Assembly (NCBI GenBank): GCA_008632985.1 | Contig: QPGO01000003.1 | Location: 248,001 to 312,000 of the forward strand | DNA: 64,000 bases | Reading direction: 5' to 3' | Source of the DNA: Psammoneis japonica | Taxonomy: Eukaryota | In this document: positions 122 to 54,460 of the stretch, piece by piece | How positions within the stretch are numbered: position 1 is the stretch's first letter | How the letters are laid out: the number at the start of each line of letters is the position of its first letter | The notes under the pieces: generated by a model | The model's database searches: none | Told to the model about the DNA's origin: nothing | What the model saw: only the letters and a program-made list of their open reading frames with translations | Made by a program: the position numbers and the translations under genes

Positions 122-2221
122 ATGGCAAATGCGAAGCTAATTGGATGTCTCGGGTTCCTTTTGTTTTGCAGCGCAGTCTCTACAAATCCATGCGCTACGC
201 AGTTTCCAAATCCGATCATATCAATTGCTCACGTTGAACGCTATAGAGGTGGTGATAGATTGAAATATCGTATGAGCGTTGATAACTACCAAAACATACC
301 GGACAGCCTTTTTGCTCCTTCTCCAGATCTTGCACCTTGTGGCCGAAACACCGAGGCATCACGAACATTTATCAATATCTACAGTGGCACTGGAAAAAGA
401 CTCTTTGGGTATTGCGCAATAACTTACACTCCTCAAGATCTCTACTTTTTTGCAGACCCTGGAGAAGTGACATCTGCCTATGTTCTTTTCTTTGACCGTC
501 GTTGCAACAGGAGATACGTTTCAAATACAATCCGTGCTCCAGTAACTGCAACTCCGACGCCTCAACCGACGGTGACTCCGACGCATATACCGACGCACTT
601 TCCAAGTCGCGCTCCCTCGCCAGGGCCTACAAAGCAACCTACAAAAGAGCCATCCAGATATCCGACCCCTGACCCAAGTCGTTCGCCGACGAGAGAACCA
701 ACAAATTCGCCCACTGTTTCGCCGACACAATCGCCAACGGCACCCCCAACAACTCAGTATCCAACTCTGCAACCGACAAAGTATGTTCCAAGCCAGGTTC
801 CTACTTCACTGTCAACAGTGGCACCGACAGAAATTACCCAGAAAGCGGATGAGACAAATTTCACAAAGGATTCACAAGAGATGAATCGTGAAGTCGGAAG
901 AGTATGTGACGGAAATGGCGATTGCCGTTCGAATACATGCCGAAACGGCGTGTGTATGTCATCGCCGGATTGCTTCCCCGTAAAGCACACTTATGGGTCC
1001 CCATTTCACAAACACAGGATCAACATCGTATTTGTTCCTTCCGCATTCGGCTCGGTTGGTCATAATGCGTGGCATGAACAGGTCAATCGTACTACTCGTT
1101 TCATGCAAAACTACAATATGTTTGCGGAAGAGATCGATGAGCTCAATGTCTTCATGGTGAATCCATTGAAACTCGATGTGTCATTTTGCAATTTGGGCTG
1201 TCGGGGATACGATCGACTCTTGTGCTGCGATATCAGACTCACGCATGCGTTGGCCGGCAAGTGCTTTCCAGTGGGTTCAAACCTCCAAACTATAGTCATT
1301 CATAACTCAAGGCAATATGGTGGTGCTGGATACACCAATGCAAATGTTGCCACTGCGACAATGCATCCTGCTTCCCCTCACGTATTAGTACATGAGCTTG
1401 GTCACTCACTCTTTGAATTGGCCGACGAGTACTCGTATGGAGACGGAACTGGACTTGAAGCTAATTGTGACACCGGATCGTGTGAGAAATGGTCAGACCT
1501 GATGGGAAGAAAGAACAGACCACTAGGATACGAGACAGTGAAGTGCATTCCTGGATGCGAGAATGGTAACTACTTTGTTGGAGGCCTAACATTCATGGAC
1601 GACTTGCTCTCTCCAGTTGGAGCCGTAAATGAACGATTTAGTTGCTGTACATATTTGTCGTTGACGAAAACGTTCCCATCCTACTGCGACGTTTTCAATC
1701 CATCTCCGAATTATCTCCGAGACTACTGCAAGAAGGATTACCAAAACTATGGCTTCTCAAGCTATGACAGCGAAGAACTTCTTACCATTCCAGGTTATGC
1801 GAACCAAGACAAGGCCAGCGCAAAGTACGTACAAGTTTCAGACCCAGTATTGGTGACAATTACATTCAGGTGGAAACGTCCGGGTGTCATGAAATTCAGA
1901 TCCAAGATCTCTTCATTAGAGTCGAGGATGTTCCGTAAGTCTCAGGTAAAAGGTGATTACCCTAGCCCGAAAGCTGCCGCAAAGGAAGGGGTCCAATCCT
2001 TATTGAAAGTGATTATCATGTACCGATCAGGAAGAGAGACACTTTTCTTCTCGAGAAATGAAATAATCGAAATCCCATTACCCGATCCAAATCAACCTGA
2101 GACAATCGCGAAAGATGCACCGCGGAGTGTGACAAAACAATCGAACGTCTTCGAACTGGTCATTGACAAGAACGGACGAGATATCGAAAAGATTCGTGTG
2201 AAGACAATGAAACGTCGGTGA
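122..2221 (+). CDS. Secreted zinc metallopeptidase, M64 (IgA peptidase)-like, with small N-terminal domain and Pro/Thr linker
   Basis: ATG at 122 followed by a signal-peptide-like hydrophobic stretch (MANAKLIGCLGFLLFCSAVS); PT/PS-rich linker; YGGAG...HELGHSLFELADEY zinc motif typical of family M64; Cys-rich. Confidence 0.8.
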   Translation: MANAKLIGCLGFLLFCSAVSTNPCATQFPNPIISIAHVERYRGGDRLKYRMSVDNYQNIPDSLFAPSPDLAPCGRNTEASRTFINIYSGTGKRLFGYCAITYTPQDLYFFADPGEVTSAYVLFFDRRCNRRYVSNTIRAPVTATPTPQPTVTPTHIPTHFPSRAPSPGPTKQPTKEPSRYPTPDPSRSPTREPTNSPTVSPTQSPTAPPTTQYPTLQPTKYVPSQVPTSLSTVAPTEITQKADETNFTKDSQEMNREVGRVCDGNGDCRSNTCRNGVCMSSPDCFPVKHTYGSPFHKHRINIVFVPSAFGSVGHNAWHEQVNRTTRFMQNYNMFAEEIDELNVFMVNPLKLDVSFCNLGCRGYDRLLCCDIRLTHALAGKCFPVGSNLQTIVIHNSRQYGGAGYTNANVATATMHPASPHVLVHELGHSLFELADEYSYGDGTGLEANCDTGSCEKWSDLMGRKNRPLGYETVKCIPGCENGNYFVGGLTFMDDLLSPVGAVNERFSCCTYLSLTKTFPSYCDVFNPSPNYLRDYCKKDYQNYGFSSYDSEELLTIPGYANQDKASAKYVQVSDPVLVTITFRWKRPGVMKFRSKISSLESRMFRKSQVKGDYPSPKAAAKEGVQSLLKVIIMYRSGRETLFFSRNEIIEIPLPDPNQPETIAKDAPRSVTKQSNVFELVIDKNGRDIEKIRVKTMKRR

Positions 2222-2787: not shown

Positions 2788-5700
2788 ATGGCGGCCAATC
2801 GAACAGAGAAACGCCTAATGCTCGCTACAGTGAATTGTATACAGCTACAGTCTGGAATAAAAAATTATCCAATGTTGAATTCAACGGTCAACGCTCCGCT
2901 TCGACCTTCCTGTTTCACTCTGGTTATTCTGCTTCTTCTTGTCTTTGTTGACAACGTTCAGTCTACGATGACCGTGGGGGTGTATGCTCAAAAGAAATTT
3001 AACGGCCCTGGATTAAACGACTGTAATGATGAAACTCTCAATGTGTTGTCAAACCTGGAATACTTGAAGAAATGGAATGGGGATTTCAGTGACTATATTA
3101 TCGACACATCAATTAAAACGTTCGCCGATCCCAATCTTGCATCGAAGCTACAAACCTTTAGTGCTTTCATCATGCCCACCATTCAAACCTATTCTCTCAG
3201 CGCTGTTCATGGATGGGGGGTTGCAGCAGAGAAGACCTTGAAAGAATATGTTGAAAACGGTGGAGTCTTGCTGGCAATGTCAGTGCAAACGAATACGCTC
3301 GCCTTTCTCAACTCGATTTTCCCTGGCTGGAACATTGGTGACGCTGGCTACTGCCGACCGAGAGTAAGAATAAGCTCAGGAAATGCTGCAGGAACTGTAT
3401 TTCAGGGGGGACCGAGCTCTGTGGATTGCCCGTCAACTACTAAGTTTATCACGTGCGGCAACGTTGCATGCACACCAATCTACGGGACGAAAAGCGCAGC
3501 AGTAGTGGCGATGCTTCCCTACGGATCCGGTTTTGTTATTCTTTATGCCTGGAGCTTCTACAACGGTGGTCATGCCATCAATATCCCGGGAGTCGGTACG
3601 CACCTTAACTGCCCCTACAGAAACAACCCATGGGCAACAGAAGTTCTTCCCCGTGCACTTGAGTTTGCAGAGCAACATTTTGTGGTTCAGAGAGCACGTT
3701 CACGAACGAGTCCACCTTCAATTGCACCCAAGGACTCCTCTGCTATGGTATGCCGCGATGACCCTCTAGGTTGGCACGATGCTGATGGTGAACAGTACAA
3801 CTGCATTTGGTACGGAAAGGATGACAATTGCCAACAATATGGAAATTTATTCGAAAACTTTGGTACCGTCGCGATGAATGCTTGCTGCTCCTGTGATGGC
3901 GGCCGAATGGTTGCAAAGAATGCGGATACTTCAACTGGACTAGTTTTGCCTCCCCCGACTTCATCTCCGTCGCGACAGCCTACCCATCTACCAACGCCAT
4001 CACCAACAAAGCAGCCGACTAGACCGCCTTCTTCGCGACCAACGGTCTCCCCGACGACTCATCCTACATTATATCCATCCCTTCCACCTACTCCATTTCC
4101 AACGCTCAATCCTACACCATCTCCCACGAAGCAACAGACAAATTCACCAACGACGATCCCTACTCCACCGCCCTCTACATCTCCGACAACTGCAACACCA
4201 ACATTCGAGCCGACGCCCCGTTCAACACTATCTCCCACGTTGGGACCCACAGCCAACCCGACGAAAGGTCCAACACGAGTTCCTTCCCCCAGGCCTTCAT
4301 TGCCTCCAACTCAAATTTTCACGTCTTTTCCCACCACGCCTCCAACTCCGAATCCGTCTCAACGACCGTCAAAGATGCCGACAAGCGGCCCAACTAGAAA
4401 TCCAACTGCATCACCTACACTTTCACCGACGAGCGAGCCAATGGAGACTATCACATCCCAACCTTCTGCGTCGCCTACAACTTTGTCGCCATCTCCAGCG
4501 CCCACGGTTCAACCCACAAGGATTCCTACTCCAGTTCCGACGAATCCTGAGGGCGAAGGACTGCTGAATTCTTCTCCGTCGTCAACCAAAACCAATTCAA
4601 CATACAGCGGGCAAGATCGGGCAAAAGCCTCAATTGAAGCGGGAAGACCATGCAGCATGAATCAGGAGTGCATATCAAATACATGCCGGAGTGGAGTTTG
4701 TATGTACTCGTCAGCTTGCTATCCACTGAAGCACAAGTTTGGGACCCAGTTTCACAAACACAGAGTCAACATTGTGTTTGTCGCCTCTGGTTTCAATACC
4801 GCCACCAAAGACGAGTGGAAAGATCGGGTCGACCATACCTACAAGTCGTTTGAGAACTACACCTTTTTCGGAAACAACATTGAACAACTCAACATGTTTC
4901 GAGTTGATCCATGGAAGTTGGACTCATCGTTCTGTTCACCCGATTGTGCAGGAATAGCTCGACTTCTCTGCTGTGACCAGCAGCGAGCTTTGGCTCTGGC
5001 GACCAAGTGCTTTCCTGTTGGCTCAAATCTTCAAACGGTTGTGATTCATAACTCAGAGTTATATGGAGGAGCAGGATATCGCTTTGACAATATCGCCACC
5101 GTCACTGTGCACCCGCGAGCGCCCTTGATTGCAGCGCACGAGCTGGGCCACTCGCTGTTTGACTTGACGGATGAATACAGCTACGGACCTGGAACGGATA
5201 GCGAGGCGAACTGCGCCTCAACCAGCAAATGCGACAAGTGGTCTGATCTTATCGACAACACTCCCGCACGGTATGATCCCGTCCAGTGCTTGCCTGGCTG
5301 TCGAAACAACAACTTTTATGTCGCATCACGATCCTTTATGAACGATCTGAAGAGTCCCATGGGAGCTGTCAATGAAAGATTCACTTGCTGCACCTATCAG
5401 GCCTTGACGAAATCCTTCCCGGCCTATTGCAATGTCTTTGACCCGTCCCCGAACTACCTCTTGAACTACTGCCGCGAGAAAGACTACCAACGTTATGGCA
5501 GAACAAGCTATGACTTGGAACCGCTCTTGTCTATAACCGACGGCACTCTTCTTCAAGACGCCAATACAAAATACGTGCAAGTTGAAAACCCAGTGTATGT
5601 CTCCATCACGTCCAAGAGAAAACGTTCGGGTGTTACCGTGTATCGAGCCAAACCACCGTTATCCCTCGATCCTGGAATGTTTCTTCGTTCGCGGGTTGAG

Positions 5701-5967
5701 GGCGAATTTACCAGTCCTAAAAAAGCCAGGAAAGATGGCGTAGATTCGCTTGTTAAGGTGATGGTATTCTATCGCACAGGGGAAGAAACCTTGTACTATT
5801 CCTTAAACGCAACCATTGAAGTACCGCCGTCTGATAATGTGGAAGAAGAAAATGGTGACCAGCGACTTGTTGTCTTTTCGGAAAAAGCAGAGAGCCTCAA
5901 TATCATCTTGAATAGCAAAGGAAGAGGAGTGAAGAGAGTTAGAGTAAAGGCCATTGATCTTCGATAA
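2788..5967 (+). CDS. Secreted M64-like metallopeptidase paralogue with a different N-terminal domain, a Cys module and a long PT linker (true start possibly 2872)
   Basis: Hydrophobic signal (FTLVILLLLVFV); CRDDPLGWHDADG...ACCSCDGG module; YGGAG...HELGHSLFDLTDEY; C-terminal half colinear with 122..2221. Confidence 0.8.
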   Translation: MAANRTEKRLMLATVNCIQLQSGIKNYPMLNSTVNAPLRPSCFTLVILLLLVFVDNVQSTMTVGVYAQKKFNGPGLNDCNDETLNVLSNLEYLKKWNGDFSDYIIDTSIKTFADPNLASKLQTFSAFIMPTIQTYSLSAVHGWGVAAEKTLKEYVENGGVLLAMSVQTNTLAFLNSIFPGWNIGDAGYCRPRVRISSGNAAGTVFQGGPSSVDCPSTTKFITCGNVACTPIYGTKSAAVVAMLPYGSGFVILYAWSFYNGGHAINIPGVGTHLNCPYRNNPWATEVLPRALEFAEQHFVVQRARSRTSPPSIAPKDSSAMVCRDDPLGWHDADGEQYNCIWYGKDDNCQQYGNLFENFGTVAMNACCSCDGGRMVAKNADTSTGLVLPPPTSSPSRQPTHLPTPSPTKQPTRPPSSRPTVSPTTHPTLYPSLPPTPFPTLNPTPSPTKQQTNSPTTIPTPPPSTSPTTATPTFEPTPRSTLSPTLGPTANPTKGPTRVPSPRPSLPPTQIFTSFPTTPPTPNPSQRPSKMPTSGPTRNPTASPTLSPTSEPMETITSQPSASPTTLSPSPAPTVQPTRIPTPVPTNPEGEGLLNSSPSSTKTNSTYSGQDRAKASIEAGRPCSMNQECISNTCRSGVCMYSSACYPLKHKFGTQFHKHRVNIVFVASGFNTATKDEWKDRVDHTYKSFENYTFFGNNIEQLNMFRVDPWKLDSSFCSPDCAGIARLLCCDQQRALALATKCFPVGSNLQTVVIHNSELYGGAGYRFDNIATVTVHPRAPLIAAHELGHSLFDLTDEYSYGPGTDSEANCASTSKCDKWSDLIDNTPARYDPVQCLPGCRNNNFYVASRSFMNDLKSPMGAVNERFTCCTYQALTKSFPAYCNVFDPSPNYLLNYCREKDYQRYGRTSYDLEPLLSITDGTLLQDANTKYVQVENPVYVSITSKRKRSGVTVYRAKPPLSLDPGMFLRSRVEGEFTSPKKARKDGVDSLVKVMVFYRTGEETLYYSLNATIEVPPSDNVEEENGDQRLVVFSEKAESLNIILNSKGRGVKRVRVKAIDLR

Positions 5968-18500: not shown

Positions 18501-20150
18501 TTTGCACAAACAGCATCAAAGCACAATGAGTTTCTGCAGAGGCCAAAGAAAACAAACACCCCAGCCAAGTTCATTTTTTCTTGTTGCCACACCTGCATGA
18601 CTTTGCTCTTGCAATCTGTGTGACAGCTGGTTGATTGGCGCTGGAAGAAAAAAAACAAAGAACAAAACACATGGCAGCCCAACAGTCTGGTGTCAAAAAG
18701 CAACCAAAAGTTGTTGAGGCTCATGGCGGCACAGAGTGACACTTGGGTGTGATTGTCACACTTGCCTTGTCCATGCTGGACCATCATGTTGTCATCACAC
18801 ACTGTTGTTGCACTGGTGGTGTGCAAGATTTGCAATTGTGTCTTGAGCTCAAACTTTGTCACACCTGACAATTGCCCTGTTCTAGACCCATGAGAGGATG
18901 ACACCTGATTTTGACAAAATGGTCTGAGATCATGTCAAATCTTAAACTGCCCAGTTTGAGATTTGCAAATCACGAGTGTCAAAGATTTTGTGTTTGCAGC
19001 TTCAGAGTGGTGGGGAACAAGAAAAATGTCCAAAGGACATCATTTGGACAATGTCAGTCCATTTGAAAAAAGTGTCACAAACATTGTCAGACAATGTTCA
19101 GCTCCCGGCATGCTTGTCGGATTGTTTTTCAACCAGATGCACACAGATGAAATGACCAGGTTCAGTTGTTTTTGCAGTTCTCCTCTGCACAGCTTTGATG
19201 ACCCAGTTGTCTGTGATGCTCAATTGCACCCAACAGCTCAATGGGAGACAACAAAGTCATGAAATCAGCCACTCAAGCAAGAAAGGGGGGTTGAGTCATG
19301 CACTGTTGGCTTCATGTGGAGAAGGACCACCACCTGCACCAAAGCCAGATCCTGCACCATGTGCCAGCCAGTGTGGCGGTGACATCCTTGTCTGTCATGA
19401 GAACCCTCTCAACACCAGCTTCTGTTGTGCTGGAGAAAAAACAGGGGCAGCGGTCACTGCAACAAGTCACAAAGAGAAGCACTTGTTTTCATGAAAGTTG
19501 ATCTTAAAAACACCTGTGCAGGCAATGACAACAGCGCCATCACAGTGAGTGCTTGCAGGAAATCAACATGACAAAGATGCTGGCTTTTGTGAAGAGAGCA
19601 AGTCAGAGGGTCACACTTTGTTTGTGGATCAAGGTGGAGCCACACCTGCAGCAACTTCAGGGAGAGCAACAGCAGCAGTTGTTTGGCAGCTGTTTGAAAC
19701 AACAAGTCAGGGGAGATGTGCCTCAAGGTTGGCAGGATTCTTTCTTGTCATGGCACCACTCATCCTTCAATCTGCATGTGCCCCCATGCCACTTGAAGGA
19801 AAACAGATCCCATCCTTGCCTGTCCACATGAGTTTGCACTCAAAAACAAGCTGGACAATGAACTCTTTTGCAAGTGGTGGGTGCCATCAGTCAAGTCATG
19901 CCTGGCATTTTGAAGGAGCATGGCAAAGTGGCCAATCCATGCCCCAATGCTGATTCACATTCTCTGGAATGTTGCTTTGGCATTGAGGATCATGCAGTTC
20001 CAGTGCTGTGTTGTCTTGCTTGGCATCGGTCTTGTGGTCAGTGGATTGGCTAAATGGTGTTGGGATCATGCTCTTGGATTGCCCTTGGAATGACCCAAGT
20101 CGGCCATGCCAGAGTGGTTGTGGTCTCAAGTGAGTCAACAATCAGGGACA
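15600..20150. other. TpA/CpG-depleted degenerate domain
   Basis: Very few TA or CG, TG/CA-rich, no credible ORF; ends in the decayed citrate synthase copy. Confidence 0.75.
19785..20140 (+). pseudogene. Decayed 3' fragment of citrate synthase
   Basis: Aligns to ~10437-10795 (e.g. caagtcatgcctggcattttgaaggagcatggcaaagtggccaatccatgcccc vs caagtcatgcctgacattctaaaggagcatggcaaggtggccaacccatacccc); indels, stops, TA->TG and CG->CA/TG changes. Confidence 0.9.
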
Positions 20151-20384
20151 AAATGATTTGAGTTTGTTGTAGAGATTGGATGTGAAGGAGCAGGGTTTTA
20201 AAGGATTTGGAGAAATGGGTGCGGTTGTGCTCCAAAAGAAATAGAATTTATTGTGAAGAATTAGGTTAATGAGAAAGTCGGTCTTTGTCTTAGCTAATGG
20301 CATGCCGCATAGGCAGCATTGAGGGACACGACATTCTTCCAGCATCATACGTTCTGCTTTCCCCGCTTTTTGTGCACACAACTG

Positions 20385-22182
20385 CTATGGATGATTCACT
20401 TTTGAACCACTGCCCTGCTGTCCGCCACCAAAAGCAATTGGATAATTTCCATTGACACCGACGGGAGACGTTTCCTGCAAATCGCGAGCGGTGACACTGC
20501 CGTCTACACCCTTAACTCCCCGTGTCGTTCGGTTTGCCACCTTGTCGCAAATCACCTCGGCCGCCAGTTTGCCACTCAGCACGGCTCCCTCCATGCTGCC
20601 CAAATACTTTTGCGTCGCATAGTCACCCGCAAGCACAAAGTTGGGAATGGGCGTCTCTTGACTTGGCCGATACTTGTTTCGTCCCGGTGTCGCGGCGTAG
20701 ACGCTTCGGGGAACACGCACCACGGCTGACTTTTCCACACGGGCACCTCCATTGGTGCACCGGGACCAATTTCGGTGGGAAAGAGCCGTGCCAATTCACC
20801 CATGGTTGCTTTAATAATTTCCTCATCGGAAGCGGCAATCCAATTCTTGTCGGAACCAGCCACGGGGGAACAGGGAGCGAACACCAACTCCAACATGGAA
20901 TTCGTATCCGAGGCGTATTCGTCACAACACGTTGACATGTCGGCATAGACGGAGAGCAGCGGACTCCGTGAAAAGCATAGTCCATCGACGGCTTGTTGGA
21001 GTTTGCGATCCAACCAAATGTGTACATTAATCACGGGAATACCCTCCAATTCATCCAATTGACGAAAAAACGGCATGGGTGACCATGCCTTGGGCACGAG
21101 ACGTTTAAACACATCCACGGGCATGGCCGATACATAATAGTCGGCCGTGACGGTTTTGCCATTGGCAAGCTTGAGACATTGGATGGACTTGTCCTTGTCG
21201 TTCAATTCAATACTCTTGACGGGCATACCGGCCTCGACTGCACCGCCACGAGCCATTACGTGTTCCACAATGGGTTGACATAGCCGATCGGGCTGGTTGC
21301 CATCCAAAAAGGCGTTTGCGATCCATCGGCTTCGTTAATGAATCGATTCATGGCTGTCAAAATGACAGTCATGGACAACTTGTCGGGATCAATAAAGTCG
21401 AGTGCCTTGCCCATGGCGATGAAAATTTCGTCATTGATGCGATCCGGCATGCCGTATTTTTGCATAAATTGCAGCACCGACAATTCGTCCTGTGCGTCAA
21501 TAAAGGATTGGCCCTCGACAAGCATGGGCAGCAATCCCGGAACCATTTTGATTTTTTCCTCTAGAGTCAACATTTCTGTATTGGATAAAATGGCAGCCGC
21601 CATGTTGAATGGAGCGGGGACGCCGGGAGGAAATTTGAATTTTGTAAATTGCCCGGGAAGCTCTTGCATGGCAAATGTCATGGAGTGTTCCTTCCATTGC
21701 AACCGTTCTTCAATATCGAGTTCCTCAAATAAATTCATCATATTAGGATAGGCTCCAAAGAATATATGCAAGCCGGTTTCAATCCAATCCCCGTCGGCGT
21801 CTTGCCATGCCGACACCTTGCCCCCCAGGACCTTGCGTGCTTCATACACGGTAGCTTTGTGACCTGCATCCGACAAGTACTTTGCACACGCGAGTCCAGA
21901 CAAGCCGCCGCCAATAATGGCAACAGTTTTGCTTTCAGATGTTTCTTCAGACGTGAATTTACGAGACAGTTCAGCAGCCTCTTTGTAATTTTGTGTCGCT
22001 TTTATTCTGGGTGGTGTCGGAAAGCGTTCTGTGGTGGTGCTCGACATTGAGAGTTTGTTGACGGATTTCTTTGCGCCATTTTTTGAGACTGAGTTAGGAA
22101 GATGTGGAACCAAGGCGTTTGTTGTTATTACAGAATTCAGAAAAACATAGCAAACGGCCGCTGCTGGGAACCAAGCCATCAT
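20385..22182 (-). CDS. PDS: Phytoene desaturase (15-cis-phytoene desaturase), plastid-targeted; apparent 1-nt frameshifts near 21313 and 20750
   Basis: [18 protein letters not shown] motif, [68 protein letters not shown] spread over three ORFs. Confidence 0.93.
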
Positions 22183-26848: not shown

Positions 26849-27124
26849 TGACAGGATTTGAACAGGATTTGGATGCGCGCGAAGTGTCGCGCGCTGTTTA
26901 GTTTACCGCGCACAGTTTTGTGTGCTTTAGTTCCGCGCGTTCACGCGCGATGTAGTTTGCTTTCGAGCCACAAGGCTCACAAGAATAATAACAGTAGCCC
27001 GATTATACCGACTTACCCGTCTTTCGGCTCCTGTAACGGTCTCTGAGCGGAGACTCATCTGCTATTTAGACAGCAGTAAGGAGTTATTGTTTGAATTCTT
27101 GCCATTTGCCTTCAATTTCTGTCA
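26849..27124 (+). repeat. 5' LTR
   Basis: tgacaggatttg...caatttctgtca; direct repeat of 33679-33954. Confidence 0.95.
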
Positions 27125-31000: not shown

Positions 31001-33731
31001 CGCTCATGTGCGTGTGCTTCATGCTCAACCACACAGCGTCCCCACGTCTCCACTGGCGCACGCCCCTCGAGACTCTCACTGGATCCACCCCGGACATCAG
31101 CCCATTGCTTCGCTTTCACTGGTGGGAACCAGTGCACTTCCACCTCGATGATTCCGATTGGCCGTCCGAATCCCGTGAGTTGCGTGGACGCTTCGTTGGC
31201 ATTGCTGAGCACGTCGGCCACCAGATGACCTTCAAGATCCTATCTGACGAGACTCAGAAGATCCTCTGCCGGTCCAACGTTCGCTCCGCTGCCCCCGATC
31301 CTGCCGTTCGAAACCTGCGTCTTGATCCTCCTGATGGGAGCCACCTGAACCCATCATCAAATCTCGCCATGACGACAACCCCGTCGATTCTCCTGATGGG
31401 GAGATCAGGACACCCAAGATGCCAGTTTTCGATCCGCAAGACATCATTGGACGTACCTTCCTCATGCAGCCACAAGAGGACGGACAACGCCACAGAGCTC
31501 GCATCGTCAAGGCCGTCGAAGACCACGAATGGAAAGTGAACGGCAATCCCGAGCTCACCAAGTTCGTCTGCTCTGTCAACAATGACGAATACGAGGAAGT
31601 CCTTGCCTGCAATGACATCATGAATCACATTGAGCAAGAAGACGAAGACACCACCATTTGGAAATTTCGACGCATCGCATCACACGAAGGACCTCTGAAG
31701 CCTCACGACCCAACCTGGAAAGGCTCAAGCTACAACATCATGCTTGAATGGGAAAGTGGGGAGATCACGTCCGAGCCTCTTGCCATCATCGCCAAGGACG
31801 ACCCCGTCACCTGTGCCATCCATGCACGAGAGAACGGACTCCTAGACACGGATGGCTGGAAGCGGTTCCGCACTATCGCGAGGCGCCAAAAGAAGCTATT
31901 TCGCATGGCCAACCAAGCCAAGCTTCGCTCCTTCCGCACTGCACCTCGCTACAAGTGCGGATACAAAGTTCCCCGGAACTACAAACACGCCATGTCACTG
32001 GACGAACGCAACGGCAACCGCAAGTGGGGAGACGCAACTAATCTCGAGATGGACCAACTCGATGAATACGAAGTCTTCCATGACTGCGGGCCCTTCAAGT
32101 CTTCCACTCCTCCTGCGGGACACAAGAAGATCCGAGTGCACCTGGTGTTCGACGTGAAACACGACGGTCGCCACAAGGCACGACTCGTAGCCGACGGGCA
32201 CCTCACGGACGTACCTGTCGACAGTGTCTGCTCGGGAGTAGTCTCCCTCCGTGGCCTTCGGCTGATGATTTTCCTGGCCGAACTCAACGAGCTGGAGACA
32301 TGGGCCACCGACATTGGCAATGCCTGCCTTGAAGCCACCACCAAGGAGAAGCTTTACATTGTAGCTGGACCCGAATTTGGCAAACTCGAAGGACACATCC
32401 TTGTCATCCACAAGGCACTGTATGGACTGCGCAGCTCCGGTCTCCGCTGGCACGAGCGCTTCGCCGACTGCCTGCGAGCTGAAGGCTTCTTCCCCTGCCG
32501 CGCCGAACCCGACATTTGGATGCGCAGGAACGGCAACCACTGTGAACACATTGGCGTTTATGTGGATGACCTCGCCATTGCCATGAAAGACCCTCAATCT
32601 TTCATCGACACTCTCACGGAAAAGCACAAGTTCAAGCTCAAGGGTGCAGGACCCATTGAGTTCCATCTGGGTTGCGACTTTTCCCGGGACCCCGACGGAA
32701 CCTTGTGCCTGTCTCCGCGCAAGTACATCGAGCGCATGGTCGACAGCTGCACCCGATTGTTTGGGGAGAAACCTGCCACCAACGCCCTGTCACCTCTAGA
32801 GAAGGGTGACCACCCCGAACTGGACACTTCCGAACCACTGGGACCCGATGGCATTCACAAGTTCCAGTCTCTTGTTGGTTCACTCCAATGGGCAGTGTCC
32901 CTTGGTCGAATTGACATTGCCACGGCTGTCATGTCACTCTCTAGCTTCCGAGCTGCACCCCGTCAAGGCCACTTGGATCGTGCCAAACGCGTCTGTGGGT
33001 GCCTCTCCAAGATGCGACACGGTGCTCTCCGCGTTCGTACGGAAGAGCCCGACTGTTCGGATCTCCCTGCTCCGGCCTGTGAATGGATGCATTCCGTGCA
33101 TGGTGAAGCAGAAGAGATGGTCCCGAAGGACGCTCCACCGCCCCTTGGCAAGTTCGTCACTGCCACCCACTACGTCGATGCAAACTTGTGCCATTGCATG
33201 CTCACCGGACGCTCTGTCATGGGAATGCTCCACTTCCTCAACAAATTCCCGGCTGATTGGTTCTCCAAGAAACAAGCCACCGTGGAGACTGCAACCTGCG
33301 GATCTGAATTTGTTGCCGCAAGGAATTGTGTTGAGCAGATTGTCGACCTGCGCATCACCCTGCGCTGCCTTGGCGTCCCGATCCGTAATGTCAGTTACAT
33401 GTTCGGTGACAACAAGTCGGTTGTAGACAGTGCCACCATCCCGCACTCCAAGTTACACAAGCGACACACCGCACTGTCGTTCCACCGTGTGCGTGAGGCA
33501 ATTGCCTCTGGTTACCTTGAGTTCCACTTCATCGAAGGCTCCCGCAACCCTGCTGACATTCTCAGCAAGCATTGGGGTTGCTCCCAAATCTGGGACCTTC
33601 TCCGCCCCCTCATGTTCTGGAACTTCATCCCATCCGAAGTCGAATCTGTTTCTGTAGCTCCTCAAGCAAACTGGGGAGTGACAGGATTTGAACAGGATTT
33701 GGATGCGCGCGAAGTGTCGCGCGCTGTTTAG
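28064..33731 (+). pseudogene. Copia gag-pol polyprotein, Tyr-depleted, with frameshifts near 30175 and 31350
   Basis: Protease LVDRGANGG; integrase DTVHAD/SDRAQVE/HQNFAER; RT VFDVKHDGRHKARLVA and YVDD; RNase H DNKS and NPADILSKH. Confidence 0.9.
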
Positions 33732-33954
33732 TTTGCCGCGCACAGTTTTGTGTGCTTTGGTTCCGCGCGTTCACGCGCGATGCAGTTTGCTTTCGAGCCA
33801 CAAGGCTCACAAGAACAATGACAGTAGCCCGATTATACCGACTTGCCCGTCTTTCGGCTCCTGTGATGGTCTCTGAGCGGAGACTCATCTGCCATTTAGA
33901 CAGCAGCAAGGAGTTGTTGTTTGAATTCTTGCCATTTGCCTTCAATTTCTGTTG
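33679..33954 (+). repeat. 3' LTR (hypermutated at TpA)
   Basis: Direct repeat of the 5' LTR with 11 internal substitutions plus the terminal dinucleotide. Confidence 0.95.
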
Positions 33955-36951: not shown

Positions 36952-37221
36952 AGCCAAAACTTCCAGTATCCTCTTCTCTAGTAGAGCGACTTAGACTACT
37001 AACTACTAGACTACTGTGCCATCGCTATATTTTTCGCCACCACCTCTGTCTGTCTGTCTGTTTGGATATTGAAGCAAACAGCGGAAAGCGCGTTTCACTG
37101 CCACGACTGACACGTACGCTTCGCTTCCTTATATCTAAAGTGCGGCTCATTTACAGTATTGTTTCATCACATATCCTCTTCATTATTCTGATTGAGATTT
37201 GCAGTCTATCGACAAGCAATA

Positions 37222-46242: not shown

Positions 46243-46636
46243 AGCGCTTAGACAAGAAGTTTTAGAGGCCCGTGCCTCTGAAACACTCTGATTCATATAA
46301 GATATTGTGTATTTTATGGAAAGGAATGCGAAGGGTACAAGATTTTTTGTGCTGTTTCCTTCGCTACACCTTTTCATGATGTGTCGCGGAAATGGGTCAC
46401 GACTAGCTAGACTCTATTTGTGGTTTTGTTTCAGTGTCGCTACATGTTAATATAGTGCTGCTGTAACATAGTCAATGGATTAACTACACGTAAAGAAATA
46501 TCGCCGAAATCTGACTGGCATGTTCAAGTTTCTCAAATAAAAGCAAAGTTGGGAAAAAGAGTCGTCTGGCCTTCCATCGGCAGATAGCGGTGTCTCAAAT
46601 CTATTGTAAGTTTCGCTGAAACGCTGAAACATCACC

Positions 46637-47620
46637 ATGACGACGTTGATCCGCATCTTTTGCAGACGCCGCAATGATGAGGATTATGAAGCCTTTCTTA
46701 TTTCCCCCGGACTATCGTTTGATGATTTGGAGCGAGCGTTTGCCAATCGATTTGGTGAAGCAACAACAACGCGAGGAAAGCTGTTTCTTTTATCTGAAAA
46801 CGACCGAGTGCGTATTCGCGGATTGGAATATTTAAAGGAAAACGACAAGGTCCTATATGAGCCAAACGCAGCTCCTCAAGGCACTTGCCATCGTCCTGGT
46901 GATCGGACTGTAAATACAGACGAAAATCGAAACGAAGAACAGGACCAAGTCGCCAAGCCAAAAATTGGAGAAAAGTACTTTGTAAAAGACAACGACATTG
47001 AATACCCAGTCAGGGTTGCTGCGCCACCGAGAGCTCAAAAACAGGATAAGGGCTCATGCTATGTAAAGTGGATTGGTTATGCCGGTGGAAAGGTGGTGAA
47101 GGATTCAGACCTTCTACCATGGACGGAGGAGCGCGAGAATGCGTACAAGGAAAAATGTGATCGCAGACAGAATCACGAACGAGCCAAAAGGGAAAAGCAG
47201 CAACAAAAGGAAGAACGAGTACGAAAGCGAAAAGCAAATGAGCGAAAAATCGCTAGGGCTCAAAAGAAACAAGCGAGAATGGAACAAGACGAACGAAATC
47301 GCCGTGCTTTGGACGTCATGCACGGACCACCAACCGATGCATCAGACCTTGATCAAGTGGAAATGGGTGAAGAAGGGACATGGGTCAGACAAGTTTCCAA
47401 GAAACGAATCGTCTATTTTGCCATTGACGACGAAACCATCAAGATGATTGCAGCCAAGTTCCCGTACATTAATGTGGACAAGCTTCTTTATGACAACAAG
47501 CCAATACATGATGGACTCACCATGTGCAAGAGGTTCAAACCTTGTGCCAAGATTGTAATGCCCATATCGTGGTATGCACGCCCCTTCAAGCCCAGCAATG
47601 TAAATAATTCTTCCGTGTAA
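46637..47620 (+). CDS. Hypothetical protein with Tudor/chromo-barrel-like segment, coiled coil and LysM-like C-terminus
   Basis: 327-aa ORF; KIGEKYFVK...YPVRV...CYVKWIGY; K/R/E-rich helix; DETIKMIAAKF..NVDKLLYDN. Confidence 0.55.
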   Translation: MTTLIRIFCRRRNDEDYEAFLISPGLSFDDLERAFANRFGEATTTRGKLFLLSENDRVRIRGLEYLKENDKVLYEPNAAPQGTCHRPGDRTVNTDENRNEEQDQVAKPKIGEKYFVKDNDIEYPVRVAAPPRAQKQDKGSCYVKWIGYAGGKVVKDSDLLPWTEERENAYKEKCDRRQNHERAKREKQQQKEERVRKRKANERKIARAQKKQARMEQDERNRRALDVMHGPPTDASDLDQVEMGEEGTWVRQVSKKRIVYFAIDDETIKMIAAKFPYINVDKLLYDNKPIHDGLTMCKRFKPCAKIVMPISWYARPFKPSNVNNSSV

Positions 47621-47899
47621 ATGGATAAGATGCCTTGCAACGCTGCATTGTTTGCTTTTCTAATAGATAGTAGTGGTTCCACAGTCTTCTTGCTGTGTAG
47701 AGCATCCATGCTAATGACAAGTGTTTCATTACCGGGACGTTAATGCTTTCTAAAGCATCCGTGTCCTATGCTGATGATCCCAGTAAGATGACAGTGGTAC
47801 CTAGAGTAGAGAGTTAACTAAATTTCTTTTAAGAAACGAGCGTTCGGGCATTGCTTTTTTTTTAGCTTCTGCAGCCGGCATGTCTGGGGTGGAACGGAA

Positions 47900-50800
47900 G
47901 GTTTCATCATTGGATCTACCGGCTGAACATCCAAGAGCACAATTTCCACCGGTTCATTAGGCCCACATCTCAGGCCACAACTTGGCCATCAGGAGTCCCA
48001 ACATCTAACCCAACATTTTGTCCAACCCTGTTGTTGACGTCTGTGACTGTGTTGAGACCAACAGTTGCTCCAACAATGCAGCCATAAAAACCTCCAGCTG
48101 CAACACCAACAAGTCACCCAACCTCTCAACCAACGGCAAAACTGACAATGCTCCATGCAAAACCCATCACAATTGCACCATCCATTTCAGCAAAAGTCCA
48201 GCTGCTGCCAAATGCAGTTGACAGGGGCTGCAAAAAGTCCACCAAAGCTGGATGGCCATGCTCAACAAATGTGCAGTGCAAGACAAACACATGTTGAAAT
48301 GGAGTTTGCGTGTCATCGTCTGCTTGCTGTCCAGTGAAGCACAAGTTTGGGACTCAGTTTCACAAACACAAAATCAACATTGTCTTTGTTCCATCAGCAT
48401 TTTCCTTGGTTGGTCACAAGGCCTTGCATGATCAGGTCAACAAGACACAAAGATTCATGCAAAACTGCAACATCTTTGCTGAAGAGATCAATGAGCTGGG
48501 GTGCAATGGCATTGATTGATTGTTGTGGTGAGAGGTTCTTTGATGCATCTTTGCAGCTTCTTTTGAGCATCTTTCTTCTCACATTTCTTCTCATCTTTCA
48601 TTCATCATTTTCAGCTGCAATGTTCAATGCACCCACAATTTGGCCAGCAAATGCTTCCCTGTTGGAACCAATCTTCAAACTGTCATTGTTCACAACTCAA
48701 AGCAATGTGCTGGTGGCGCAGGATGCACTGACGTGAACATTGCTGTGGCAACAATGCATCCTGCAGCCCCTCTTGCATTGGCACATGAGCTTGGTCACTC
48801 GCTCTTTGAACTGACGGATGAGCACTCTTGTGGAGACGGAAATGGCAATGAACCAAATTGTGATGACATGTCATGTGACAAATGGTCGGATCTGATGAAA
48901 CAAAAGAACAGGCCACAAGGTCACACTGGAGTGCAATGCCTCCCAGGATGCAAAATTGGTGACCACTTTGTTGGAGGCAGGACCTTCATGAACAACCTGA
49001 GTGCTCCCATTGGAGCAGTCAATGAAAGGTTTAGTTGCTGCACACATTTGTCATTGACTGAGGTTTTTCCTGCCTGTTGTCATGTCTTTGACCCCTCCTC
49101 AAATTTTCTCTTGAACTGCTGCTGCAAGAGGGATTGCAAAAACCATGGCACCTCCAACTGTGAAAGCAAAGATGCTCTTGCCATGCCGGGTTTCATTGAC
49201 AAAGACAAGGCCTCTGGAAAATGCATGCAAGAGTCTGACCCTGCAATGGTGACAATGTTGTCCAAAGTGAAACGCTCAGGAGCTGCCGCATTCTGAACAA
49301 CACGGGAACCATCAGAGCTGAGCATGTTTCTAAAGTCCAAGGTTGGTGGCGGTTTTCCCAATCCAAAAGCTGCAGCAAAGAAGGGAGTGAAATCCTTGCT
49401 GAAAGTCATGGCACAACACAGACAAGAAGGAAAAGAGACTGTTTGTTTTTTGAGGAGCACAACCATCAATTGTGCTGTGGTTTTTGAACATTTGTCAGTT
49501 GTCAGCCACTGCTCTCCAGCTCTTGCGAGCATTCACAGCTCACACTGGCAGCTGCTTTTCAGGAACACTGACACAAAACAGATCCAAATGAAACGTTGTC
49601 AAAGACATTGTTGATGGCCTGCACCCAAGCAAACAAACACAATGACAAGATCTTCAGGGCTTGTCACTGACCTTGTTGCCAACTGCTGTCAGCTTGGTGA
49701 CCAAAGAAAACAAGGAAATGGACAAAACTGCAGGACACACAACAATGACACAAGACTGGCTGAACAAAAAGAAAACCATGGAAAACAGACTGACCCAATG
49801 GTGAATTTGTGGGGGGGCTGTGAGAAAAATCATCTGCATGCAAACCTTGGCCACATCACGAAGACTGGACTTGCTTCACAGATCAACCATCATGTGGGGG
49901 GTGATGCAACAGTGGTGAGAGCATTGACGTGAGGTGGTGCAAACATTGCAAGTCTGGTGGTGGCATTTTCTTTTAGTTTCTCCCAACAAGTTGCTGGGGT
50001 CTCCACTCTGTTCAGGTGGACACTGTGGCTTTTGCATCTTGTTTTCTGCAAGCAAGATTTCTCCACAAGATTTCTCCACACAGTCAACCAAAATGACCAT
50101 GTGGAGAAATGTCACGACCCTCGTGAAATGATCAGGCTTGTCTGCACGCAAGAAGCTTCTGCAAAAATCTGAGAATGTGAGCAGCAGCAACAGCCCACAA
50201 ACAAAGCAAGTGGCACAAAGCACAAAAAACTGCAGGTCGGATCCAGAGCTTGGTGTGTGCACAGGCAGCTCTCTTTCTCTCTCTGCAGATCTCCAAGCAC
50301 AAAAAATTGACATTGCAACAATGACAGTGGCTTTGCCAATGAGCAACATCACAGAAAAAACTCTGTGTGCTGTGATCTTGAGGAGTTTTGCATGCCACCA
50401 CAGTGTGGAAATGATTGTAAAAAAAGAACTTGCACATGAGCACACACATCTGTTCTCAACTGAAATGCCAGCCCAGCTGGCCCAGCGCTGTGACCAAACA
50501 ACCTGGTTGTTGAGATGGAACAAAGCAGCCAAATGAAAGCACACGCAGTGCCAAAAGTCTCTTGCACCTGCTGCAGCACCTGCTGTCACTCTTTTGCCAG
50601 CAGCGTCTGTTTGCACTTTGTGAGAGAACAGCCTCATTCACAAATTCTGCTCCGTGTGCTTGAACAAAGCATCAAATGCCCACAAAGCTGCCAAGAAGTG
50701 CTTTCATCTTTGTGCAAAGACAACATGTCTGTCATAAAAAAGTGCAAGCAATGTGGCAAGCCAGACATTCACCAGCAACATGCAAAGAATGGACCAAAAC

Positions 50801-52010
50801 AAAGCAGGCAGGAAAGCCTTCTTTTGCAATGACCATCAAGGTTGCTTGAAGTGAGGACATTGCTGGCAAGCTTTCAAGGCAAAAATGACCAGGCTGCATC
50901 TGGTGCAATGAGTTTGGGTGCTGCTTTTGGGAAGCTGGCTGTGGCACTTGGAGGAAGAACAAACATCTCATCAAGTGTTGAAGCTCTGCTCACAAGCTCT
51001 TTTTGACAACAATGGCTGGGTGCTGCTTGCACCCAGGCATGACTGCACTCTGTGGCAAGCAAAAATTTCATCCTTCTTGAAACAAGGTCTCAAACACAAT
51101 GTGTGTGTTGATCAAAAGATGGCTGCTTGAGTTGTGTGTTTCTTTTTCACATGGCCGCTGGATGAGCGACAACCCATTTGAAAAAAAATCAGCACCAACC
51201 GTTGAAAGTGTTTCTGAGCATCGCAAGTGGGTTGCACTGCCGTCCATTGTTTCACATGTGACACAGTGTTTTTTGTGTGAAAAGAGAAAAAAGCTTTGAA
51301 AGAAGTTGAGACATTGTGGCACAAAGGTTGGCTGCACCTGAGATCATTTTTTCAATTCTTTGCAAGTTTGTGTCAGGGCTCTTTGGGAGATCATGTTGCC
51401 AGCAGCCGCTGCAACTAGCAGAAAGCAGCAAAAGCAATCACAGCTGATGCGCCCCAGCTCCAGGTGGGGCCTCATGCTGCTGCACACTGTGGCAGGAGAG
51501 TTTTTTGACAACACGTGCTGAACATCGGAGTGATGCATTTTTTGTGAGCAAAGCCAAAGGCTTCTCATTGCAACCATTTGTTGTGATGCAACAAAAGTCA
51601 CCTGGGCATTTTCTTCAATGTCTGAAGAAAATGCCCTGGCAAAGCAAGAAATGATGCCAGCTTTGAGCGCAAATGAGAGAGTGCACACACACGTGCTGTT
51701 TGCAAAATTGTCTCTTTCTGTTGGTGATTGTCAATGCATGCACCTCCCAACAATTTTGTTGCAGAGCTTGTGTGTGGAATTCTGTGGGCCCAATGCCACA
51801 CGGAGCCCCGCCTGGGGCTGGAACACGCCAGCAACTGGTTTCTCTTCTCTCTGAGTCGCCGCCAACAAGGTGGGGGGAGCAAAAAGATGACAGAAAATGC
51901 ACAGAGTGCAGTGCAGCCCCAGCACATTTGGGAGCATGGCCACTCCCAACATGGGAGGTCTGGAGCACGATGTCTTTCCTAGATGTGAGGAGAAAAAATG
52001 CACAACATGG
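47900..52010. other. TpA/CpG-depleted degenerate domain (includes the M64 pseudogene)
   Basis: Near absence of TA and CG; TA returns abruptly at ~52010. Confidence 0.75.
47930..49440 (+). pseudogene. Third M64 peptidase paralogue, hypermutated
   Basis: Colinear with 122..2221 from the PT linker to the C-terminal domain; HELGHSLFELTDEH; stops, deletions, no Tyr codons in 48640-49296. Confidence 0.92.
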
Positions 52011-52086
52011 CTAATTGCCGTCAGAGGGAGGATTGCCACTCCCAACTGGGAGGTCTGTAAGTGGTACGGAAGAAGACAGAGAAGAC

Positions 52087-53623: not shown

Positions 53624-54460
53624 TGGAGGATTGCTTGCGGCAAAGCCCTCGCTCCCGCATCGAGCGAAGCGAAGGCGGTGTCGGGCGATGGACAGACCCG
53701 CTGGCAGCTTGGTGAGCGAGCGAGCTCTTCGATCTACAGAAAGAATAAACAGGCGTCAGACGCCAGTTTCCTAGCGTTTTACCGGTAAAACAATTATGTA
53801 GAAATTGTGTACAATTTTAAAAAAGAGATGAGGTTGGATCGAAAAATGCGACAGAGACGCACAAAAACGCGACACAACACGACAAGCGACAATGGCGACC
53901 ATGTGGGGATAAAAACAATATCCACACTAATTTCAGGCATACTGCAGTAACAATATAAACATGATAAGTGTAGCTGATACAATAATTGGCTCGCTGGTGT
54001 CTATCTAATAGCTCTAATCGATCATTCGAGATGATGCCATTGTCATCAATATCCCGTATTGTTGCTACGCGTAATTCACGTAGAAAATTGCAAAAAAAGC
54101 CATTGACAACGATGCTCTGAAATCAACCACAAACTGCATCCAGAGTCAATATGGGCGCACATCTATACTTATTACTCGCCATAAGACATATCCAATGCGT
54201 TTCGTCTCACAAAAATTAGTCAACAGCGTCACCGGCGGCACGCCATTGTCAGCATCGAATGCCGTACAAAAAGCACGGGGACGACGGAAATCGGCTTCGT
54301 CTGTCGCATTTGTCTGTCTATCGCCCGTTTGTCTCGTAGAATCTACGAGAAAGTTCCCATACATTTTACGGTCTGTCCATGCTTCATCTGACGCCTGTTT
54401 ATTCCTGACAACCGTTTATTCCTCGCGCTTCGATCGCTCTTCGCACTTTTCTTCGCGACC

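Follow-up and report, generated by a model that had tools for sequence, protein, structure and literature searches.

A host M64 peptidase paralogue of the diatom Psammoneis japonica in a domain depleted of TpA and CpG

Introduction

A 64-kb stretch of Psammoneis japonica contig QPGO01000003.1 (positions 248,001 to 312,000, hereafter the window) contains a degraded copy of an M64 peptidase gene that has exchanged its tyrosine codons mostly for those of cysteine and histidine. Is this copy a host gene, and if so, what kind of process has altered it? An earlier note, made from the sequence alone, took the copy for a duplicate of a host gene and concluded that the process is limited neither to retroelements nor to an RNA/cDNA stage. 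Here we follow up this interpretation, delimit the affected DNA and weigh the possible explanations.

Results

Structure and ancestry of the M64 pseudogene

The features discussed are listed in Table 1. The pseudogene (P) was delimited by tblastn with the product of the intact gene A, residues 160/209-739 of which match 47917/47962-49608 (E 1e-141 to 1e-148). P is truncated at the 5' end, with no counterpart of the first 160-200 or so codons of gene A, and a single reading frame can be followed through to its own terminal TGA at 49612-49614. The gene copy thus extends from 47917/47962 to this stop, and the limits of 47930..49440 given previously have to be corrected. Six in-frame stops are present (TAA at 48085; TGA at 48295, 48517, 48529, 48541, and 49294), at least two of which are CGA to TGA conversions. 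Three of the six are located in the CT-rich stretch, which may represent either an intron (GTGAG...TTTCAG) or replaced sequence. The parent genes are intronless, which makes intron loss uninformative as to a retrocopy origin of P.

Table 1. Positions of the features within the 64-kb window
Feature	Position	Strand	Basis or remark
M64 peptidase pseudogene P	47917..49614	+	tblastn with gene A, stops, Tyr count, tree
218-codon ORF inside P	48640..49296	+	includes HELGH, the M64 zinc-site motif
CT-rich stretch of P	48497..48607	+	unalignable to A or B; gap in blastn and in transition-blind alignment
Gene A, intact M64 peptidase	122..2221	+	closest paralogue of P; TA and CG normal
Gene B, intact M64 peptidase	2788..5967	+	outgroup for polarising changes
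TA/CG-depleted domain holding P	47870..51975		10 TA and 48 CG in 4106 bases
Remainder of the domain, outside P	49615..51975		without Pfam family, LTR, TIR or homologue in the window
Partial (3') copy of the citrate synthase gene	19784..20417	+	parent 10437-11096; converted only in 19784-20140
5' LTR of Copia	26849..27122	+	unconverted, 15 TA and 21 CG
3' LTR of the same Copia	33679..33952	+	10 of 15 TA converted (6 TG, 4 CA), 1 of 21 CG converted

We take P to have been functional once, since it has no frameshift over 1.65 kb, its indels are all in frame, and its differences at non-target sites follow a 22%, 17%, and 36% pattern over the codon positions. The Pfam family PF09471 matches the ORF of P with an E-value of 1.5e-5 (24.8 bits, slightly below the 26-bit cut-off), and the HELGH motif is kept; genes A and B are both over the cut-off (E 3.6e-11 and 1.4e-10, respectively).

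In a tree of in-frame sequences, in which 16 of 40 outside homologues were used, the three genes group as (B,(A,P)) within a lineage-specific host M64 clade, with supports of 100 and 99. The branch leading to P is 0.82 long versus 0.19 for gene A. The position of P as sister of gene A in the host's own M64 clade supports its origin from a host gene, in agreement with the earlier note, and a fragment of another host gene, coding for citrate synthase, has been converted as well (see below). Neither poly(A) after the stop of P nor flanking repeats around it were found in the sequence.

Tyrosine loss and conversion of TA and CG in P

There is no Tyr in the entire frame of P (549 codons). The 218-codon ORF (plus stop), for which the absence of Tyr had been reported, aligns with positions 1250-1906 of gene A, where there are 15. 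In the MAFFT alignment these correspond to seven Cys, five His, two Phe and one Ala in P. The lone Ala is due to a one-codon insertion in P (QCAGGAGC vs. Q-YGGAGY) and becomes Cys when the alignment is shifted by hand, which gives eight Cys, five His (13 C/H), and two Phe, precisely the fates described before. The four motif pairs quoted as examples (QYGGAGY to QCAGGAGC, DEYSY to DEHSC, CCTY to CCTH, and DYQNYG to DCKNHG) are all found in the alignment. Conversion of TpA and CpG leads to just such replacements, as it turns Tyr codons TAY into His CAY or Cys TGY; it also turns CGA into TGA stops and makes TAA and TAG vanish.

P retains only 6 TA and 19 CG dinucleotides, far fewer than expected by chance: 2000 mononucleotide shuffles of its sequence have 122 TA (minimum 96) and 90 CG (minimum 65) on average. 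Among the 51 TA of gene A, one is kept in P, 17 are replaced by CA and 15 by TG, whereas 19 of 51 are kept in the A to B control. The 51 CG of gene A behave similarly: three are kept in P (15 are now CA and nine TG) and nine in B. The difference between TA sites and other sites is highly significant in the comparison of A with P (Fisher test, p=3.5e-9) but not in that of A with B (p=0.66). The enrichment at target sites, whose absence relative to the true parent gene would have spoken against the earlier interpretation, is present when only the 19 TA common to A and B are considered: P keeps none of them, 15 being converted (8 TG, 7 CA) and one replaced by CG. Contigs of this genome that carry further paralogues point in the same direction, as P has CA or TG where the others have TA or CG in 20 of the 26 differences listed inside P. 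CA and TG are about equally frequent in P (208 vs. 178).

The depleted domain around P

The depletion of TA and CG is indeed present at the locus described earlier, but it does not end at 49440 and continues to about 51975. TpA O/E in the resulting domain is 0.03 and CpG O/E is 0.21, with CA and TG numbering 486 and 452 (p=0.28). The six frames of this block contain 16 TAA/TAG vs. 205 TGA stops; since TAA and TAG are almost absent, long ORFs in depleted DNA are partly a by-product of the depletion.

Most of the domain is single-copy at 80% or higher likeness. A 6040-base contig built from a separate set of accurate reads confirms the sequence: it spans 46023-52062 with only three differences and has a single-copy depth of 65.5. 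Those reads derive from the sample that was also used for the assembly, and so do not represent an independent strain. At two of the three differing sites TA is found in the reads against CA or TG in the window, a hint that conversion continues today.

No Pfam family was matched by the six frames of 49441-52000, and no LTR or TIR was found there. A transition-blind (purine/pyrimidine-coded) search with 47800-52100 matched only genes A and B within the window; two further matches, of 81 and 79 bits, scarcely exceed the reversed-sequence null of 74 bits. A 253-codon ORF at 49879-50637 on the reverse strand was compared by phmmer with 1.84 billion proteins, and its single match (E 8.7e-4, no family) was judged to be noise. 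The 2.4 kb adjoining P could be a degraded mobile element, in which case P could have been converted as a bystander by spreading.

Conversion elsewhere in the window

A Copia element with an RVT_2 domain in its body and CATGA at both flanks throws light on the process. Of the 11 sites at which its LTRs differ, 10 have TA in the 5' copy and either CA or TG in the 3' copy; the remaining one has CG and TG, respectively. All conversions are located in the 3' LTR and affect both strands, while none of its approximately 200 positions outside TA and CG has changed. As the LTRs were identical at integration, the changes must have been made in the integrated element, where either strand could be hit, so the conclusion that it is not limited to an RNA/cDNA stage stands. 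The small proportion of CG converted in the 3' LTR compared to that of TA indicates that TA is converted before CG. In the body of the Copia element and in two further blocks, at 7-8.8 kb and 59-61 kb, TA is scarce but CG is still present.

Next to an old depleted block, the 5' LTR has escaped conversion, as have some 450 bases following it. This is not foreseen by any simple silent-domain model.

The partial copy of the citrate synthase gene permits the limits of conversion to be compared with those of the duplication. In 19784-20140 none of the 16 TA of the parent is kept (11 have become TG or CA) and one of 18 CG is kept. In 20141-20417, 5 of 12 TA and 4 of 10 CG are kept. The parent gene is normal in composition and untouched. 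Conversion ends at about 20140, within the duplicated stretch, suggesting targeting by domain and not by homology. The view that P was hit for being a duplicate is not supported: besides this boundary, TA and CG are at normal levels in the intact tandem genes A and B and in a pair of FG-GAP paralogues with 73.6% identity over 1.6 kb. The other part of the earlier claim, that retroelements are not the only targets, is borne out by P and the citrate synthase piece, both host-derived.

Converted DNA amounts to 18.2 of the 64 kb, or about 28% of the window. The depletion signature flagged 33 of 127 1-kb segments here and none of 877 in 47 metagenome loci encoding M64 relatives, which served as a specificity control for the signature and not as a survey of other diatoms. 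The transition at domain edges takes no more than 100-250 bases and is thus sharp. TA is retained in genes and in the short spacers between them, and the region at 52-54 kb has normal TA and CG, yet it contains no long ORF and is multi-copy. CA and TG are approximately equal in six of the ten regions tested, including P and its domain; they differ in the other four (p 0.002-0.046).

In the other depleted blocks, none of 73 ORFs of at least 90 codons reached the Pfam cut-off, and neither reverse transcriptase nor integrase was among them, so these blocks cannot be confirmed as retroelements. Rfam and tRNA scans of the 64-kb window found nothing, the proteins scanned from the window had no matches to deaminase families, and no usable pattern was seen in the sequence context of surviving TA.

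Discussion

Proposed explanation and its alternatives

We consider it likely that P is a formerly functional host M64 paralogue lying in a probably silent 4.1-kb domain, which was saturated by a local, domain-targeted hypermutation at TpA and CpG. P, once a working paralogue sister to gene A, would have lost its 5' end and would now be part of a single-copy stretch of probably silent DNA. Integrated double-stranded DNA would be hypermutated locally until saturation, with TpA changing quickly to CpA or TpG, and CpG changing to TpG or CpA at about one-twentieth of that speed. Each site would change once, because the first change removes the target on both strands. The target would be set by the domain, most likely by untranscribed or repressed chromatin, and not by homology, foreignness or retroelement status. 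The spectrum and direction of the changes, the use of both strands, the action after integration and the limits of the domains come directly from the comparisons presented above, while the link of conversion to silencing is something we infer. The chemistry is probably deamination: at TpA, of the adenine following T, by an enzyme of the ADAT/TadA type such as was suggested for Bigelowiella natans, and at CpG, of (methyl)cytosine. Ordinary decay through methylation could instead be responsible for the loss of CpG, as a process of its own. P, which lacks its N-terminal codons, may have been silenced before it was converted. As at least two stops of P are CGA to TGA changes, conversion might itself have inactivated the gene. 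A role of the process in gene-family turnover, as put forward in the earlier note, is thus no more than a possibility.

An untargeted alternative, in which TpA and CpG decay genome-wide and selection spares functional DNA only, so that dead DNA drifts free of TA and CG, appears unlikely. It would account for the recognisable contents of the depleted blocks, all of them pieces of dead genes, and for the retention of TA in genes and short intergenic spacers; the unconverted end of the citrate synthase copy may lie in the 3' UTR of a neighbour gene with a stop near 20576. However, LTRs of equal age differ 11 to 0 in conversions and show no other type of change, which points to a TA rate far above the background. 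Neither the sharp edges nor the normal TA and CG at 52-54 kb are expected from such decay. Misreading of modified bases, with TA and CG retained in the true sequence, is a different matter. Long-read base callers misread methylated motifs as transitions, and every change seen here is a transition. Nevertheless, such an artefact is extremely improbable: the k-mer contig from the reads agrees with the window except at three sites, which is impossible to obtain from noisy long reads, strand-wise misreading would often give CG from TA (seen in only one of the 19 polarised TA), and P also contains ordinary divergence and in-frame indels.

Two further alternatives concern the way in which P could have been recognised or formed. 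A RIP-like homology-dependent defence would have struck P and the citrate synthase fragment as duplicates; both recognisable targets do copy genes found elsewhere in the window, and RID-related DNMT4 enzymes of unknown function are described in many diatoms in the part of the source available (PMC9998398). We regard it as very unlikely, though, as the direction of change at TA is opposite to that of RIP. Instead of the high TpA/ApT and low (CpA+TpG)/(ApC+GpT) which RIP produces, P has 0.06 and 1.93, respectively. RIP mutates both copies, whereas neither gene A nor the citrate synthase gene has been touched, conversion of the citrate synthase copy stops inside the duplicated stretch, other paralogue pairs are unaffected and the domain is mostly single-copy. 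P could also be a 5'-truncated retrocopy edited before integration by an ADAR- or APOBEC-like activity, as its incomplete 5' and complete 3' ends resemble those of LINE-type retrocopies and a 5' U is preferred by ADAR and ADAT enzymes (bioRxiv 10.64898/2026.01.13.699255, in the text accessible). Editing of this kind is highly unlikely, since the LTR changes post-date reverse transcription or are very late in it and affect both strands, the domain extends 2.4 kb past P, poly(A) is absent and the citrate synthase copy is only partly converted; conversion of CG to TG or CA on both strands would also require a second editor.

Relation to known systems

The closest counterpart of the proposed domain-targeted hypermutation is the process reported in Bigelowiella natans, where viral inserts that are silent and single-copy acquire de novo TpA to TpG/CpA changes at a rate about 1000-fold over background, and an ADAT2-like adenine deaminase has been put forward as the agent (Mettrop et al., 2026, bioRxiv 10.64898/2026.01.13.699255). 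As far as the accessible text of this preprint goes, both systems convert TpA to TpG and CpA only, on both strands, act in local single-copy domains and leave lasting clusters poor in TpA and rich in CpA and TpG. In our material, A:T to G:C changes at TpA constitute 10 of 11 LTR differences, and they were found at 15 of 19 sites in P and 11 of 16 in the citrate synthase copy; the strands are used evenly (6 TG and 4 CA in the 3' LTR, 8 and 7 in P), and the domains are local (edges at about 47870, 51975, and 20140) and single-copy (depth 65.5). The differences are also clear. B. natans belongs to Rhizaria and P. japonica, a diatom, to Stramenopiles; the targets described there are foreign, whereas P and the citrate synthase piece are host-derived; TpA O/E of 0.03 indicates saturation here, compared to Rho of 0.45 for an NCLDV insert there. 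CpG is also lost here, while the part of the preprint available to us does not mention it. The rate given above is that of B. natans itself, and in P. japonica the footprint is read from sequence.

RIP of Neurospora and other ascomycetes has in common with our case the irreversible, local, transition-only scrambling of unwanted DNA, which introduces stop and missense changes and destroys copies. However, RIP changes C:G to T:A at CpA and makes TpA, whereas here TpA is consumed and CpA and TpG are made, so that the indices are inverted. RIP also needs duplication and hits both copies, unlike the process seen here, which leaves parents untouched and ignores the homology border. Methylation-driven CpG decay of silenced repeats, known from vertebrates, plants and the CG-methylated transposons of diatoms, resembles the slower, CG to TG/CA half of the signal, but the faster and more complete loss of TpA is beyond its reach. 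APOBEC3 and ADAR likewise cause deaminase-type hypermutation with a dinucleotide context (a 5' U in the case of ADAR) and leave fossil footprints in genomes. They act on cDNA or dsRNA with strand bias or in connection with retrotransposition, in contrast to the changes on both strands of resident non-retroelement DNA described here.

Implications

TpA-specific hypermutation of resident DNA has, to judge from the accessible text of the preprint, a single prior report, limited to foreign DNA of one chlorarachniophyte (bioRxiv 10.64898/2026.01.13.699255), and no report of it in diatoms was found in the literature searched, including the available part of PMC2806351. What is new is that a diatom is concerned, that a host gene is hit and that CpG is lost too, although more slowly. 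A recently described DNA-scrambling process appears to strike host genes, probably silenced ones, besides viruses and jumping genes. The saturated signature in a diatom makes it possible to test whether targets are chosen by silence or by foreignness, as well as the role of the process in paralogue death and its antiquity in SAR.

There are also practical consequences. With TAA and TAG lost, converted DNA contains long spurious ORFs on either strand, divergence of LTRs is useless as a clock here, and similarity searches miss converted pseudogenes and transposons. A natural TpA-specific DNA editor would be of interest for base editing.

More tentatively, we speculate that diatoms may possess a homology-independent counterpart of RIP, which edits any silenced resident double-stranded DNA at TpA and, more slowly, at CpG, is shared with chlorarachniophytes and is old in SAR; this broader proposal is possible but rather doubtful. 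If it is true, silenced DNA, foreign or host, would be irreversibly scrambled by an enzyme system acting through natural DNA adenine deamination at TpA, and members of gene families would be finished off or even killed by it.

Composition of the window and its depleted blocks

The window is eukaryotic, with many genes and few introns. Its citrate synthase shows 83-90% identity to diatom proteins (Nitzschia, Asterionellopsis, Mayamaea, Conticribra, Cylindrotheca, Fistulifera), with none of the 120 matches listed exceeding 90%, so the source organism is a diatom. Sequence of normal composition has a TpA O/E of about 0.5-0.7 and a CpG O/E of about 0.9-1.1. In six blocks, which sum to 18.2 kb (28% of the window), TA is almost absent, CG is scarce and CA and TG are close to double. 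When 1-kb windows were flagged for a TpA O/E below 0.2 combined with a mean CpA/TpG O/E above 1.5, 33 of 127 were flagged here and none of 877 in 47 metagenome loci (at least 3 kb) encoding M64 relatives. The blocks at 7000-8800 and 59000-61000 are intermediate, with a TpA O/E of 0.07-0.14 and a retained CpG O/E of 0.4-0.7. The body of a Copia element is likewise TA-poor with much CG left, and the old blocks have neither dinucleotide, so TA was lost first. Tandem internal repeats with units 87-91% identical occur within three coding sequences of normal composition.

Features of the window
Feature	Position	Remark
M64 gene A	122-2221 (+)	intact, closest paralogue of P
M64 gene B	2788-5967 (+)	intact, outgroup
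Depleted block 1	~7.0-8.8 kb
Citrate synthase	9527-10405
Parent of citrate synthase copy	10437-11096	last 350 bases of CDS and ~300 bases downstream
Tandem repeats	14551-15091	subtilase
Depleted block 2	~15.8-20.14 kb
Citrate synthase copy	19784-20417
Depleted block 3	~25.5-26.85 kb, resuming 33.95-34.2 kb
Copia element	26849-33952	RVT_2 in body
FG-GAP repeat genes	34948-36951 and 37192-39981	tandem, intact
Depleted block 4	~42.45-43.8 kb
Tandem repeats	45184-46161	unnamed gene
Depleted block 5	~47.87-51.98 kb	contains P
M64 pseudogene P	47917-49614 (+)
Tandem repeats	56560-57053	PT-rich protein
Depleted block 6	~59-64 kb

A converted M64 pseudogene

An earlier note had placed an M64 copy at 47930-49440. 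Its identity is correct, but the pseudogene (P) is longer: tblastn aligns residues 160/209-739 of gene A with 47917/47962-49608 in one frame, and P ends with its own TGA at 49612-49614. The reported absence of Tyr from the ORF at 48640-49296 is borne out and extends to all 549 codons of P. The aligned part of A has 15 Tyr; with a one-codon insertion taken into account, P has Cys at 8 of these positions, His at 5 and Phe at 2.

Out of 51 TA in A, P keeps one and has CA at 17 and TG at 15, while B, used as a control, keeps 19. For the 51 CG of A the figures are 3 kept, 15 CA and 9 TG, against 9 kept in B. Change at TA exceeds that at other sites between A and P (p=3.5e-9) and shows no such excess between A and B (p=0.66). 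Where A and B share TA, and so reveal the ancestral state, P retains 0 of 19 (8 TG, 7 CA and only 1 CG); 2 of 9 shared CG are kept. P contains 6 TA and 19 CG, the minima in 2000 shuffles being 96 and 65, respectively. The enrichment does not rely on A as the parent, since in 20 of the 26 listed differences between P and contigs of other M64 paralogues P has CA or TG and the others have TA or CG. Two of the six in-frame stops (48295 and 49294) align with Arg of A, which fits the proposed CGA to TGA route.

A tree of the three M64 copies and 16 outside homologues gives (B,(A,P)) with supports of 100 and 99, and a larger tree, from an incomplete search, also pairs A with P (support 100). P thus arose by duplication within this lineage's own M64 family and is not virus-borne. 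Its branch is 0.82 long against 0.19 for A, and in a transition-blind purine/pyrimidine alphabet its likeness is 86% to A and 78% to B. The first 160-200 codons are missing from P, and the end of another gene, of normal composition, lies upstream of 47917. The frame is unbroken over 1.65 kb, every indel is a multiple of three, and differences outside target sites affect codon positions 1, 2 and 3 at 22%, 17% and 36%. Judging by the sequence, P probably still worked as a gene while most of its differences from A built up, and became defunct rather late.

Support from sequencing reads

One public read set, probably from the assembly's own sample, contains 96% of the sampled words. It yielded a 6040-base contig (k-mer depth 65.5) spanning 46023-52062 with three differences from the window. 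A contig of this kind is beyond noisy long reads, which makes it very unlikely that misread modified bases are behind the depletion at 47870-51975. The block with P has the depth of its flanks and is thus single copy. Further contigs (80-95% likeness) cover only the M64 core at 48.0-49.3 kb, at most 10 at one site, and are other paralogues of the family. At two of the three differences (50521 and 50782) the window has CA or TG and the reads TA, a type found in none of four differences outside the block; these few sites hint that conversion is still running or heterozygous.

The stretch at 51700-54300, adjoining the end of the depleted domain, has normal TA and CG and no long ORF. Its summed contig depth (at least 80% likeness) is 900-3200 against 65 for single-copy sequence, so a multi-copy family is located there.

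Conversion of a resident Copia element

The Copia element is flanked by CATGA on both sides and has LTRs of 274 bases each, which differ at 11 sites. Ten of these carry TA in the 5' LTR, replaced by TG (6) or CA (4) in the 3' LTR; the eleventh is CG versus TG, and no other kind of difference was found between the two. As an LTR pair is identical when integrated, these changes struck resident DNA; they affect both strands, run in a single direction and are confined to one of the LTRs. This agrees with the earlier view that the process is not restricted to an RNA/cDNA stage. The TA change rate in the 3' LTR is far above background and that of CG is lower (10/15 TA versus 1/21 CG, an estimated rate ratio of about 20). 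The TA-poor zone covers about 27600-34200; the 5' LTR and some 450 bases that follow it lie outside this zone and are unconverted.

Within this zone the body has a GC content of 56-60%, a TA O/E of 0.21, normal CpG, 0-1.6% Tyr and long overlapping ORFs on both strands, so its open frames may be no proof of intactness. The element is nested in an older TA/CG-depleted block (25500-26848 and 33955-34200), meaning that new insertions land, or are tolerated, in converted DNA.

Content and targeting of the blocks

The only recognisable content of the depleted blocks is P and the piece of citrate synthase. No Pfam families were found in six frames of 49441-52000, none of 73 ORFs of the other blocks reached the Pfam cut-off, no terminal repeats were found in the block of P, and a search of 1.84 billion proteins gave no convincing relatives of the 253-codon ORF beside P. 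Retroelement status is thus clearly evident for Copia only, and the other blocks are not assignable as retroelements. Converted DNA yields long false ORFs, such as these 253 codons at 49876-50637 (-): the six frames of 47870-51975 contain 16 TAA/TAG against 205 TGA. A weak Syf1/CRNKL1 HAT-repeat match at 59995-60294 (+) in a TA-poor block (E 2.7e-4, below cut-off) could be the remains of a further host gene that was converted.

A degraded mobile element might make up the 2.4 kb next to P, and P might have acquired its state by spread from there; this is the chief reservation on regarding a host gene as the target. The citrate synthase copy speaks against homology-dependent targeting, including duplication as a trigger if the earlier note meant this. 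Its part at 19784-20140 keeps 0 of 16 parental TA and 1 of 18 CG, while 20141-20417 keeps 5 of 12 and 4 of 10; this split at ~20140 puts the conversion edge inside the duplicated stretch, matching the edge of the depleted block. The paralogue pairs of genes A and B and of the FG-GAP repeat genes are untouched, which also argues against such targeting; the latter are 73.6% identical over 1.6 kb and normal in TA and CG. The indices of repeat-induced point mutation (RIP) are also the reverse of what RIP gives (TpA/ApT 0.06, (CpA+TpG)/(ApC+GpT) 1.93).

Relation to known systems

The same signature is described in the text of a 2026 preprint on Bigelowiella natans (bioRxiv 10.64898/2026.01.13.699255). 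Its mutation-accumulation lines gained 231 mutations in two integrated viral regions, both silent and single-copy; 230 of them were A to G or T to C, all at TpA and at a rate ~1000-fold that of the background. The B. natans genome has 124 TpA-poor, CpA+TpG-rich clusters, and an ADAT2-like deaminase was proposed as the agent. That text does not mention CpG, pseudogenes or diatoms; its supplementary tables may include host genes as depleted sequences. The window differs in lineage, saturation, the accompanying CpG loss and the host-derived DNA struck. Our literature search found no report of TpA-targeted hypermutation in diatoms, and passages of a diatom Copia paper do not mention the process (PMC2806351). 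Many diatoms have RID-related DNMT4 enzymes without known function, according to parts of a paper about their DNA methyltransferases (PMC9998398); as a lead, these enzymes concern the CG changes and not those at TA.

Overall, these observations would best be explained by editing of the B. natans type that acts on resident DNA and is limited to domains in silent regions, its chemistry and targeting signal being what we infer. The process may also influence gene-family turnover, as the earlier note proposed. As P and the citrate synthase piece are host-derived, the process is not restricted to retroelements, as had been suggested earlier.
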